Positions 28,113-62,323 of a DNA stretch of 64,000 nucleotides are shown in pieces. The notes beneath the pieces are model-generated. The model ran no database searches. It was given only the letters and a program-made list of their open reading frames with translations, and was not told where the DNA came from. The position numbers and the translations under genes were made by a program. The number at the start of each line of letters is the position of its first letter. The first letter of the stretch is position 1. Source of the stretch: Candidatus Saccharimonadota bacterium (lineage in GTDB: Bacteria > Patescibacteriota > Saccharimonadia > Saccharimonadales > Saccharimonadaceae); the NCBI GenBank assembly GCA_017480035.1, contig JAFVBJ010000003.1, forward strand, positions 298,126 through 362,125, given 5' to 3'.

Positions 28113-28178
28113 AAAGCATAAGGATAATCTCTATCTGTGTGTCCTGAGCGCACAGGGAAAAATATAAGAAAGGATAAA

Positions 28179-28844
28179 ATGAAAAAACTAAATACAAACA
28201 AGAAAGGCTTTACGATTATCGAGGTCGTGCTCGTCCTTGCTATCGCCGGTCTTATCTTCATGATGGTTTTCATCGCACTTCCAGCGCTCCAGCGCTCACA
28301 ACGTGATACACAGCGTTCTAACGATATCGCTCGTGTCCAAACCGCCCTCAACCAATACCAAGCTAACAACCGTGGCGCAATTCCTGGCGGTGACAACAAG
28401 AGCCAAATGTATGTTAAAGGTCATGAAACCCAACTTACTAGTACGGCCGCTTATGCTACAGGTACATGGGGCTATTTCTATGACCAATATTTGATTGTTA
28501 ACTCTGGTGGTTCCCAGGACGTCTTCGCTGACCCAGATGGTGGTTTCTACTCTCTTTGGGTTCAACAATGTAATCCAGCTACTAAAACTGCCGGTACAGC
28601 TTGCGCTACTACAGTCCAACGTGCAACAGTTACCTTTGACGATCAATCTCTCGGTGCATTAACTAATGAAAACTCAGCTGCAAGTAGCGACTCAAAGAAC
28701 ACATCTGGTGAGATTGGCCATTCCATCTCAATCGTCATTCACGCAACCTGTAACGGTGAAACAGCTACATATTCAACTGGTGCCCGTAAAGTTGCAATTC
28801 TCTACAAGAAGGAAGGTGGTGGTACCTTCTGTCTCAACAACTAA
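28179..28844 (+). CDS. Type IV pilin (class III signal peptide)
   Basis: MKKLNTNKKG/FTIIEVVLVLAIAGLIFMMVF; 4 Cys in the globular domain; SD AAAGGA; own promoter and terminator. Confidence 0.9.
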   Translation: MKKLNTNKKGFTIIEVVLVLAIAGLIFMMVFIALPALQRSQRDTQRSNDIARVQTALNQYQANNRGAIPGGDNKSQMYVKGHETQLTSTAAYATGTWGYFYDQYLIVNSGGSQDVFADPDGGFYSLWVQQCNPATKTAGTACATTVQRATVTFDDQSLGALTNENSAASSDSKNTSGEIGHSISIVIHATCNGETATYSTGARKVAILYKKEGGGTFCLNN

Positions 28845-60223: not shown

Positions 60224-60861
60224 TGTCAACTCGCAAATTTGAGCTCGACCAGCATTTCTTAAAATCTCCGAAACTTGCTTTGATGTTGATTGGTCATAGT
60301 AATATTCGAAAAAACGATACTGTCGTCGAAATTGGTGCTGGCTCTGGCGTCATCACAACCGCACTCAGCAAGCGCTGCAAAAAAGTCATCGCAATCGAAC
60401 CGGACCACGAAACTGCTGAAAAACTTCGCGAAAATCTCCGGAAATTCGGCAGTAAAAACGTCGAGATTGTCGAAAAAGATTTTCGTGATGTGAAATTTCC
60501 GTCCGAACCATACAAAATCTTTGCGAACCCTCCCTTTCGCTATTCTTCTGAAATTTTCTACAAACTCTTAAATCTCGAAAATCAGGGCGGTAAAATCGTC
60601 AAAAAACAGGGAGAATGTTGTAATTTTGACAACACTCTGCCAAAATCAATCTACCTCATTCTTCAGAAAAATCTTGCTCTGAAACTTATTCAAACGGATC
60701 GCCATTATACTTCCCAGCTAGGGTATCTTCTCCAGGAAAAATACACTACGAAAATCCGCTTTCCTCTTCGAAAAACGGATTTCACTCCTCCTCCAGCTGT
60801 TGATACGGTGCTTTTTGAAGCGAAGCTTATTTCAACCCAGCCTCAAGATAATAAGTCTTGA
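60223..60861 (+). CDS. Erm/KsgA-family rRNA adenine N6-methyltransferase, second and shorter paralog
   Basis: LDQHFL, VVEIGAGSGVIT, AIEPD, KIFANPPF, DFTPPPAVDT. Confidence 0.8.
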   Translation: MSTRKFELDQHFLKSPKLALMLIGHSNIRKNDTVVEIGAGSGVITTALSKRCKKVIAIEPDHETAEKLRENLRKFGSKNVEIVEKDFRDVKFPSEPYKIFANPPFRYSSEIFYKLLNLENQGGKIVKKQGECCNFDNTLPKSIYLILQKNLALKLIQTDRHYTSQLGYLLQEKYTTKIRFPLRKTDFTPPPAVDTVLFEAKLISTQPQDNKS

Positions 60862-61576
60862 CTTGGTCCCAGCCCCAGCTCGTGTCGAAGCCGGTCGTCT
60901 CAAGCCCGCCGAATTTGAAGTATGGCATCCCGGACGTCCCCGATTTTTCCATAATTTTTGCAGCTTTTTTCGTGTTTTCTCGTACATGCTCGAGCTGTGA
61001 ATGATTCTTATAACAGTCCTTAAACGAGTCGCCTAGCCCGACTTCGTATCCAATCTCAAGCCAGTAATCTGCGGTCATTCCTTCGATTTTCGGCGCTGTT
61101 TTTGAGTTTCCGATGCCTTTTGAATGGTAATCTTCGTTGAGTGATGTCATTGTATTGTGATAATATTCCCAGAATTTTCCTTCTTCCGTCGCACAGAGCG
61201 TTGCTTCTGCCGCCTGTTCGGATTTTGCGCCCGCCTCACCGTATTCATTCAAGAAATCCGTGATTCTCATCTCATAGACCACGTCATTATCTTTGAGCCA
61301 CTGTTCAAATTCGTCTTGATGCGACATAATTGCGCGCGAGAAATAATCACAATACGGACACATAATATCTGTCGTCATGACATAATGGTTCTTCGCGTCT
61401 TTATTCCCGAGAATTGTTCTTTCGTCCCAAATCGCGTTCAAATCGTCGCTCTTTGGTGTTCCAATCACAATTAGCGAAATAATCGCAATCGCAATCAAAA
61501 CTAGCACAATCACGCGAATCACAACTCCTACCGCGCCGTTTCCGCCGCCAATTTTTTCGTAATCTGAATCGTTCAT
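60827..61576 (-). CDS. Membrane-anchored DsbA/thioredoxin-fold oxidoreductase
   Basis: N-terminal TM; LGNKDAK, DIMCPYC, SGMPYF cis-Pro loop. Confidence 0.82.
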   Translation of the reverse strand: MNDSDYEKIGGGNGAVGVVIRVIVLVLIAIAIISLIVIGTPKSDDLNAIWDERTILGNKDAKNHYVMTTDIMCPYCDYFSRAIMSHQDEFEQWLKDNDVVYEMRITDFLNEYGEAGAKSEQAAEATLCATEEGKFWEYYHNTMTSLNEDYHSKGIGNSKTAPKIEGMTADYWLEIGYEVGLGDSFKDCYKNHSQLEHVRENTKKAAKIMEKSGTSGMPYFKFGGLETTGFDTSWGWDQVKTYYLEAGLK

Positions 61577-62184
61577 TTTTTGCTTCCTTTCTTTCTAAAT
61601 TCCTCAGATTTTATTATTGCATACGTCTCAAAACCAACTTTTTTCAGTGCAAATAGCGCTATTAAAATCGAAAGGATTGTTAGTACCCAACTCACCGTTC
61701 CCGCAATCGCCATCCCAGAGCTTCCGGCAATCGAGATGATGATTGGTGCTAGAATCGTCGTTCCGCAAGTCGGGCAACCCGAGCCAAGCACAATCAGACC
61801 TGTGATAATCCCAGCATTCTGGAGATTCGCGGTATCTTTTCGATATTTATAAACATAAACCACCAGCCCAATCAGCGTCGATTGTAAAATTGTCACGAGA
61901 AAGATAAATAGAAAGTCAGAAAACTCTCGATTCACTCCAAAAGTGCCGAGAAAAGCGTTGAAAAGCAGGGAAATTTTATCGAAAAATCCTACTCTCATCA
62001 AAATTCCGAAGCTTGCGCCGCCAGAAGCAAGTAAATTCAGCAACGTCCCGAAGAACACGAAAGCAATCAAAAAGGTGATCACGAAGCGTTTTTTGCGAGT
62101 CGCAAGCAAAACTCCATAAAACGCAAGCTTGAATTCATCAAGCCACCTCGAGAGCTTTGAATAAATTTTCTTACCTCCAGCCAT
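61573..62184 (-). CDS. Four-TM membrane protein with a CxxC motif
   Basis: Start ATG 62184 after TGATATACT; LGSGCPTCGTTIL; 4-nt overlap with the dsbA-like gene. Confidence 0.75.
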   Translation of the reverse strand: MAGGKKIYSKLSRWLDEFKLAFYGVLLATRKKRFVITFLIAFVFFGTLLNLLASGGASFGILMRVGFFDKISLLFNAFLGTFGVNREFSDFLFIFLVTILQSTLIGLVVYVYKYRKDTANLQNAGIITGLIVLGSGCPTCGTTILAPIIISIAGSSGMAIAGTVSWVLTILSILIALFALKKVGFETYAIIKSEEFRKKGSKK

Positions 62185-62323
62185 ATATATAAGTATATCA
62201 TGAAAAAACGCTAGGAATATAAAATCGTCGAAAAATTGAATTACCCCAGCAAAACCGAACAAAAATTTTCGAAACCGAACGAAAAACGCTCATGCGATAA
62301 CATAAAAAAACTAAAAATCAATA

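Follow-up and report, generated by a model that had tools for sequence, protein, structure and literature searches.

DsbB and VKOR are quinone-coupled membrane enzymes that re-oxidize DsbA-like proteins; in both, a membrane helix begins at a CxxC motif, while in CcdA and DsbD the two cysteines are located on different helices. How DsbA is recycled where neither DsbB nor VKOR is present has reportedly been a question since the 2008 survey by Dutton and colleagues. MauE is able to replace DsbB using a single CXC motif and quinone, and about 20% of species are still without any known pathway (preprint 10.64898/2026.03.05.709764). Here a gene pair is described that lies in a stretch of 64,000 nucleotides (the window, i.e. 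the whole stretch of DNA that was analyzed; contig JAFVBJ010000003.1, positions 298,126 to 362,125, assembly GCA_017480035.1) from a member of Saccharibacteria, whose genome of 773 kb is contained in three contigs and is 97.5% complete. The two genes, both on the minus strand, encode a small membrane protein, P0001, and a membrane-anchored DsbA-like protein, P0002; window positions are used throughout. P0001 is probably the redox partner of P0002, and together they would form a two-gene, translationally coupled module for extracytoplasmic thiol-disulfide exchange.

P0002 can be assigned to the DsbA family on the basis of its match to Thioredoxin_4, of its DsbA-like fold and of the invariance of C73, C76, G216 and P218 among its homologues. 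The Pfam Thioredoxin_4 profile (PF13462) matches P0002 with an E-value of 7e-7 and 29.9 bits, above the cut-off of 23.2 (30.2 bits in the whole-genome scan), and the sole clear sequence match in the PDB is MdbA of Corynebacterium diphtheriae (5c00, E 3e-4). The AlphaFold2 model, obtained with 35 homologues and having a mean predicted local distance difference test score (pLDDT) of 91.5, displays a thioredoxin fold into which a large helical segment is inserted, formed by helices 117-212 between the strands; a single N-terminal hydrophobic helix (residues 15-39) precedes the thioredoxin domain, the CxxC is at the start of helix 1, and a conserved proline loop is present, where P218 would adopt the cis conformation. 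A Foldseek search with this model retrieves MdbA first (E 6e-8), followed by ScsC, TsdA, Wolbachia alpha-DsbA, BdbD and Mycobacterium tuberculosis DsbA, all with a probability of 1.00. Since these matches include both oxidases and the reduced, isomerase-type ScsC, the fold alone gives no direction to the electron flow.

P0002 resembles MdbA of C. diphtheriae and Actinomyces, BdbD and M. tuberculosis DsbA in being a membrane-tethered, DsbA-like protein of a Gram-positive-type envelope; however, it is only 16-20% identical to them, and the partner encoded with it is the unnamed P0001 and not VKOR or BdbC. The active site is CPHC in MdbA and CPYC in Staphylococcus aureus DsbA; P0002 has CPYC, which is kept in 76/76 of its Saccharibacteria orthologues. 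A further pair of cysteines, C128 and C188, probably forms a structural disulfide in the helical domain; an extra pair outside the active site is presumably found also in M. tuberculosis DsbA. The total number of cysteines is four in the DsbA-like proteins linked to the P0001 family and mostly two in those linked to VKOR.

P0001 contains exactly two cysteines, C137 and C140, in the sequence GSGCPTCG. No Pfam match at E up to 1 and no NCBIfam family were found for this protein, and full-text literature searches retrieved no published description of its family. HMMER, run exhaustively against 1.84 billion representatives, identified 137 clusters of relatives (at 50% identity); all the cluster representatives bearing any name are annotated as "hypothetical protein", and a search of the ESM Atlas returned unnamed clusters only. 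In an alignment of 67 full-length members, with identities as low as about 14-20%, C137, C140 and G141 never vary, and conservation is 99% for G136, 97% for P147 and about 87% for G134, S/T143, K70 and Q101; conversely, the residues between the two cysteines vary (PT, PS, AA, VA, VP, SS), and beyond this pair zero cysteines are conserved. To judge from the aligned sequences, the CxxC of P0001 is thus no chance feature. Word-based searches found no fused forms of P0001 among longer proteins, which is weak evidence; distant relatives of the ACPxCG type reach 417-611 amino acids, with extra parts that have no Pfam family.

The distribution of lysine and arginine over the 67 homologues indicates four transmembrane (TM) helices with both termini in the cytoplasm: there are 6.3 such residues per sequence at the N-terminus, 3.75 in loop 2 and 4.1 at the C-terminus, while the stretch comprising the motif, TM3b and loop 3 (residues 136-161) has zero charge, and TM3a and TM4 have less than 0.4 per sequence. 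The helices of the AlphaFold2 model (pLDDT 88.3) agree with this topology; in particular, a helix spanning residues 121-134 is interrupted at G-x-G-C and a new helix starts from residue 138. By residue count the CxxC is about 16 residues away from the cytoplasmic loop; it is therefore placed not in that loop, but inside the bilayer, and would lie somewhat nearer the outer face. The P0001 family thus possesses a conserved, redox-capable cysteine motif in or at the membrane.

With DsbB (PF02600) and VKOR (PF07884), P0001 shares a small four-helix architecture, a CxxC where a membrane helix begins and a gene that adjoins, or is coupled to, one for a DsbA-like protein; however, it displays no sequence, profile or detected fold similarity to these enzymes and no recognizable quinone-site residues. 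In addition, DsbB has a CxxC in TM2 plus a pair in a periplasmic loop, and the VKORs of the same class have the invariant C56, C64, C138 and C141, whereas P0001 has C137/C140 alone, with no second pair in a loop. The resemblance to MauE consists in the presence of one cysteine motif only, in a genome that lacks DsbB and VKOR; the motif is nevertheless different, since MauE has CXC-F-G and a conserved set of Lys, Glu and Phe, whereas P0001 has G-C-x-x-C-G and conserves K70 and Q101. Like CcdA, DsbD-beta and ScsB, P0001 has only two cysteines, which would be buried in the membrane, no cofactor motif and a probable partner with a thioredoxin fold, presumably extracytoplasmic (ScsC being DsbA-like), and, as for CcdA and ScsB systems, members of its family are occasionally found in a metal-stress gene context; CcdA and DsbD, however, have at least six helices, PCxxP-type motifs and one cysteine per helix, while in P0001 both cysteines are on one helix turn.

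The possibility that P0001 is a divergent VKOR, DsbB, CcdA, DsbD_2 or MauE was rejected within the reach of these methods, the profile searches being negative. Indeed, Pfam gave no match of P0001 to DsbB at E up to 1, nor to VKOR, DsbD_TM (PF02683) or MauE (PF07291), and when the family profile was compared by hhalign with 13 VKORs of the same class and with the CcdA of locus L137, the probabilities were 0.09% and 0.18%, respectively. A profile search of the family against PDB sequences gave nothing, Foldseek of the P0001 model against the PDB gave no match at E up to 0.001, and a wide VIA-align search returned generic helical matches only, with a best Z of 6.8, which is within the noise for helical proteins; neither VKOR nor DsbB is among the matches listed by Foldseek and VIA-align, although an absent match does not prove a different fold. 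A relationship to the uncharacterized family DUF7546 (PF24412) is doubtful: this family is matched weakly by 8 of the 67 members of the P0001 family (best E 0.0032, below the 27-bit cut-off), with no match for P0001 itself, for ten CAAC-type members or in the host genome, and it is found above the cut-off in one of 14 control genomes.

The P0001 stop codon overlaps the P0002 start codon (Table 1), an organization which, as read from the DNA, would couple the translation of the two proteins, and an AAGGA is found about 10 nt upstream of the P0002 start. A scan of one genome per species yielded 253 relatives in which the GCPTCGT motif is present, close ones being from rumen and gut metagenomes; the 80 best were taken, all from Saccharibacteria, and among the 77 of these loci in which the family open reading frame (ORF) was recovered a CPYC DsbA-like gene is located directly downstream on the same strand in 76. 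The family is present in 23 of the 301 sampled Patescibacteria genomes, and in distant members of the phylum an anchored CP[FY]C Thioredoxin_4 gene adjoins the family gene in about 13 of 20 usable loci, usually upstream, i.e. in the order opposite to that of the window. The same adjacency, mostly with the opposite gene order, was found in all 11 family loci fetched from a sample of 201 genomes of the class. Considering the 6-kb flanks of 24 diverse family loci, where gene calls are heuristic, a DsbA-like gene occurs in 19, while no other neighbor occurs in more than four (heavy-metal P-type ATPase and ArsR-like, four each; MsrB-like and glutaredoxin-like, three each); the sampled genomes are not phylogenetically independent.

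Genomes such as G398, G395 and G466 contain a pair formed by a DsbA with four cysteines and a P0001-family member, which mirrors, with the same layout, a DsbA-VKOR pair in the same genome. The latter is part of a conserved three-gene operon (L122, L124 and L126, on G398:C25, G395:C11 and G466:C5), which comprises a DsbA-like protein (QCP[VA]C, mostly with two cysteines), VKOR (CQYC) and a thioredoxin-like protein of about 113 amino acids with TCPHCL, six cysteines and no obvious signal sequence. At another locus (L137, G412:C3:289500-293500) the DsbA-like and family genes are followed by ArsR-like and glutaredoxin-like (CGFC) genes and are divergent to a separate pair coding for a TlpA-like protein (WCPTC) and CcdA, so that two membrane thiol systems are found side by side.

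The two genes are also gained and lost together. All the 44 genomes of the taxonomic family to which the window belongs have at least one DsbA-like gene, with two or three copies where the CxxC family is present and mostly one where it is missing; likewise, two DsbA-like genes are found in those members of genus g5 that possess the CxxC family, and one in the two members that lack it. Since the number of DsbA-like genes tracks the presence of the CxxC family, P0001 and P0002 can be regarded as one module added to a core DsbA-like gene. This core gene in the host encodes a CSAC protein (G000:C3:246464-247261), which is more canonical, with a Thioredoxin_4 score of 94-95 bits, and is not flanked by any membrane redox gene; throughout the taxonomic family the core DsbA seems to be the orthologue of this protein. 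A displacement of VKOR by the P0001 family at the same locus was considered and rejected, as the VKOR of sister genera sits after ftsA-ftsZ and not at the locus of the pair. The conserved block found in these genera (L030-L034) is ftsA-ftsZ-150aa-86aa-VKOR, where VKOR has LCPWCL and the 86-aa protein is glutaredoxin-sized and lacks a CxxC.

Whole-genome six-frame searches of the host found no VKOR, DsbB, DsbD_TM, DsbD_2 or MauE, while control genomes responded to the same searches; VKOR is absent, and the P0001 family present, in 7/7 sampled genomes of the window's genus. Even cysteine numbers in exported proteins are said to have been used by Dutton and colleagues as a signature of structural disulfides. 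In the host, exported-like proteins, as separated from cytoplasmic-like ones by a crude heuristic export predictor, have even cysteine counts in 45 cases and odd counts in 22, compared to 142 and 193 for the cytoplasmic-like ones (Fisher p 2.6e-4); their cysteine content is higher, too. Several of the even-cysteine exported proteins have the N-terminus of type IV pilins. Type IV pilin-like proteins with GFT[IL][IV]E N-termini and 4, 6, 6 and 10 cysteines are encoded at 28137-28844 on the plus strand of the window and at G000:C3:204200-208246, and they would be candidate substrates of the disulfide machinery. The genome also contains thioredoxin and thioredoxin reductase (TrxB); an exported-like protein of 181 amino acids with CPHC (G000:C2:7734-8279, L120:2735-3280) was not counted as a thioredoxin, since it has no Pfam family.

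These results agree with most of what a first-pass annotation had read from the DNA. It had described an overlapping gene pair, with a membrane-anchored CPYC thioredoxin-fold protein, and this stands in view of the coordinates, the ATGA overlap, the Thioredoxin_4 match and the MdbA-like fold. Its second protein, with a single cysteine pair beside a TM helix, is borne out by C137/C140 as sole cysteines of a four-TM protein, and its view that this partner is neither DsbB nor VKOR finds support in the lack of any Pfam or NCBIfam family and in the hhalign value for VKOR. The same annotation had named findings that would speak against the proposal, i.e. a cytoplasmic or unconserved CxxC, or a canonical dsbB or vkor partner together with a gene unlinked in relatives; the motif is instead invariant in 67 sequences and lies in an uncharged TM3/TM4 hairpin, no canonical gene is found in the genome, and the pair is linked in 76/77 Saccharibacteria loci.

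As to the function of the module, P0002 would act at the outer face of the membrane as a tethered DsbA/MdbA-like enzyme, introducing disulfides into exported proteins such as the even-cysteine, type IV pilin-like ones; P0001 would be its dedicated membrane partner, whose C137-x-x-C140, located where a helix within the bilayer begins and probably nearer the outer face, would exchange its disulfide with C73/C76 of P0002. The likeliest direction is that P0001 re-oxidizes P0002, because the genus has lost VKOR and is without DsbB, MauE and CcdA; a non-homologous protein would then play a role comparable to that of DsbB, VKOR and MauE, and electrons would leave the CxxC of P0001 towards an acceptor, for which a scavenged quinone is the obvious candidate. 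Physical interaction of the two proteins would be implied, and the relay would be an oxidative one, with pilins or, as also put forward in the first-pass annotation, parts of type IV secretion systems as possible substrates. On this basis P0001 may be, tentatively, the oxidizing partner of P0002 in the host genome; that it represents a fourth, non-homologous class of DsbA re-oxidizing membrane enzymes after DsbB, VKOR and MauE, working with a single intramembrane CxxC, is possible, with greater doubt.

An oxidase role is favored by P0002 being closest, both in sequence and in fold, to the oxidase MdbA. By analogy, the precedent of the single-motif MauE, the location of the CxxC where a membrane helix begins, shared with DsbB and VKOR, and the mirrored DsbA-family and DsbA-VKOR pairs of G398, G395 and G466 would point in the same direction. 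In the sample of the class, VKOR is found in 15 of 36 genomes with the P0001 family and in 117 of 165 without it (odds ratio 0.29, p 0.0016 by genome).

Several observations, on the other hand, weigh against P0001 as a re-oxidase. The negative association with VKOR in the class rests on a few clades and becomes weaker when counted by genus (p 0.02-0.07), and in the phylum sample it becomes positive, with VKOR in 8 of 14 strict family-positive genomes compared to 94 of 301 overall (odds ratio 3.1); CcdA-like genes, too, are found in 8 of these 14 genomes, the association with CcdA being neutral. With both VKOR and CcdA found together with the family in other genomes, co-occurrence gives no clear direction; full DsbA-VKOR modules alongside the P0001 family suggest a different job for the latter. 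P0001 has only one pair of cysteines, and, K70 and Q101 aside, it conserves no charged or aromatic residue that could mark a quinone site; its model is least confident around the CxxC (pLDDT 61-74), so that the depth of the motif in the membrane is uncertain. In addition, the genera g251 and g4, which have neither VKOR nor the P0001 family, keep a DsbA-like gene, showing that DsbA can exist without a membrane partner; genes for cytoplasmic glutaredoxin-like proteins, TrxB, MsrB, ArsR or heavy-metal ATPases lie near some loci, and the fold of P0002 is matched also by that of ScsC, which is a DsbA-like protein kept reduced.

Two general arguments advanced in the first-pass annotation have to be revised. 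Patescibacteria are not known to make quinones, and a need for a non-quinone partner in the candidate phyla radiation (CPR) had been deduced from this; the argument is weak, since VKOR, a quinone enzyme, is encoded in 94 of the 301 sampled Patescibacteria (31%) and in 132 of the 201 genomes of the class (66%), which indicates that the phylum does use chemistry of the quinone type, the quinone being presumably scavenged. Many of the VKOR copies of Patescibacteria are part of longer, fused open frames (330-590 amino acids). The expectation that a DsbA re-oxidase should have two pairs of cysteines is instead outdated, as MauE works with a single CXC (preprint 10.64898/2026.03.05.709764).

A reversed electron flow has also to be considered, with P0001 as a minimal conduit, similar to CcdA, DsbD or ScsB, by which electrons from cytoplasmic thioredoxin or glutaredoxin-like proteins keep P0002 reduced as an isomerase or reductase of the ScsC/DsbC type, e.g. 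during copper or oxidative stress; the oxidase of the cell would then be the partnerless CSAC protein. A single buried cysteine pair and the lack of any cofactor motif would suit a relay based on thiol-disulfide exchange alone, both thioredoxin and TrxB are available in the host, and the occurrence of the family beside complete DsbA-VKOR modules in the same genomes suggests a non-redundant job; the redox and metal genes near some loci, which include also HMA-DsbD_2 genes, and the fold similarity of P0002 to ScsC are in line with this. Nevertheless, we regard such a conduit as rather unlikely: the known ones use two cysteines on separate helices and not a CxxC, the best match of P0002 is an oxidase, and the coexistence with CcdA-like genes in 8 of 14 family genomes, together with the separate CcdA and TlpA-like genes beside the L137 pair, indicates that P0001 is no substitute for CcdA either. 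A substrate of a reductive pathway was not found in the host, where CcdA was searched, while cytochrome c maturation genes were not searched for.

The CxxC might alternatively bind Cu, Hg or Cd, as intramembrane cysteines do in MerT/MerC-like proteins or in the CPC of P1B-ATPases, while the DsbA-like protein repairs or protects exported thiols. Genes for heavy-metal P-type ATPases, HMA-DsbD_2, cupredoxin-DsbD_2 and ArsR-family proteins near a minority of loci would be explained in this way; however, they amount to about 4 of 24 loci, compared to 19 of 24 for the DsbA-like gene, Pfam relates P0001 neither to MerT or MerC nor to any other metal family, the pair has no metal gene as neighbor within the window, and the next gene downstream is the DsbA-like one in 76/77 Saccharibacteria loci (their wider flanks being unannotated), so that metal handling is very improbable. 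Only slightly less improbable is a recycling of P0002 by small-molecule disulfides of the gut with no protein partner, P0001 being an anchor, an assembly factor or a thiol/disulfide permease. S. aureus DsbA is reported to be recycled by small-molecule disulfides. The DsbA of Clostridium botulinum is partnerless and uses oxidized glutathione or ergothioneine (PMC12453122), and the g251 and g4 relatives, which keep a DsbA-like gene while lacking both VKOR and the P0001 family, are in line with this. This explanation, however, accounts neither for the invariant CxxC, nor for a gene that almost always adjoins one particular DsbA-like paralogue and is translationally coupled to it, nor for the joint gain and loss of both genes.

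The possible re-oxidation of P0002 by P0001 is of interest in that a nearly complete genome has no known recycling enzyme, a clear signature of exported disulfides and one conserved candidate welded to a DsbA-like gene, and the question can be directly tested by standard E. coli dsb complementation assays. If P0001 is an oxidase, it would define a new enzyme family and raise the question of the electron acceptor in organisms lacking a respiratory chain; should it indeed be a fourth class, ultra-small bacteria devoid of respiration would perform oxidative folding on quinone scavenged from the host or on an entirely different acceptor. If, conversely, it conducts reductant, a minimal four-helix alternative to CcdA would be at hand. 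Either direction matters for understanding the assembly of pili and other surface proteins in Saccharibacteria.

Table 1. Positions of the P0001/P0002 gene pair and of its features in the window
Feature	Position	Strand	Description and basis
P0001 gene	61573-62184	-	203 aa, four-TM membrane protein of an unnamed family; ORF and translation
P0002 gene	60827-61576	-	249 aa, membrane-anchored DsbA/MdbA-like thiol-disulfide oxidoreductase; Thioredoxin_4 above cut-off, model, Foldseek
ATGA	61573-61576	-	overlap of P0001 stop and P0002 start; sequence read
TATACT	62192-62197	-	possible -10 box, 7 nt before the P0001 ATG; sequence read
Motif G134-x-G136-C137-P-T-C140-G141-T-T-I-L-x-P147	61744-61785	-	helix break in the uncharged TM3/TM4 hairpin of P0001
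P0002 N-terminal transmembrane anchor, residues ~15-39	61460-61534	-	hydrophobic helix in the AlphaFold2 model and translation
P0002 active site C73-P-Y-C76	61349-61360	-	C73 and C76 invariant in the alignment of P0002 homologues
P0002 G216-M-P218, presumed cis-proline loop	60923-60931	-	G216 and P218 invariant; precedes strand 219-222 in the model
P0002 second Cys pair, C128 (61193-61195) and C188 (61013-61015), helical insert	61013-61195	-	each kept in at least 90% of homologues

With regard to the 5' end of the pair, an alternative start of P0001 is a TTG at 62262, which would add 26 residues; translation more likely begins from the ATG at 62184, since close homologues have 202-204 amino acids. 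A Shine-Dalgarno sequence is absent upstream of this ATG, and the nearby TATACT makes it possible that the transcript is leaderless or near-leaderless; this -10 box is a weak inference, because TATACT was not among the boxes called by a consensus promoter scan.

Some variability is found among members of the P0001 family. At one locus (L035, G296:C12:18000-28000) four genes on one strand encode an anchored protein of 197 amino acids with CCCKCW, a DsbA-like protein with CPFC, a 206-aa family paralogue with both ACPVCG and ACGQCG, and a family member with GCASCG, while a VKOR is located about 2 kb away; the CCCKCW protein, which has no Pfam family, occurs also at L021. A sub-branch found at L006, L007 and L026 (G248 and G218) has H in place of G136, in the form HC[IV]ACGG, with no adjoining DsbA-like gene, and at L007 its member follows a heavy-metal P-type ATPase.

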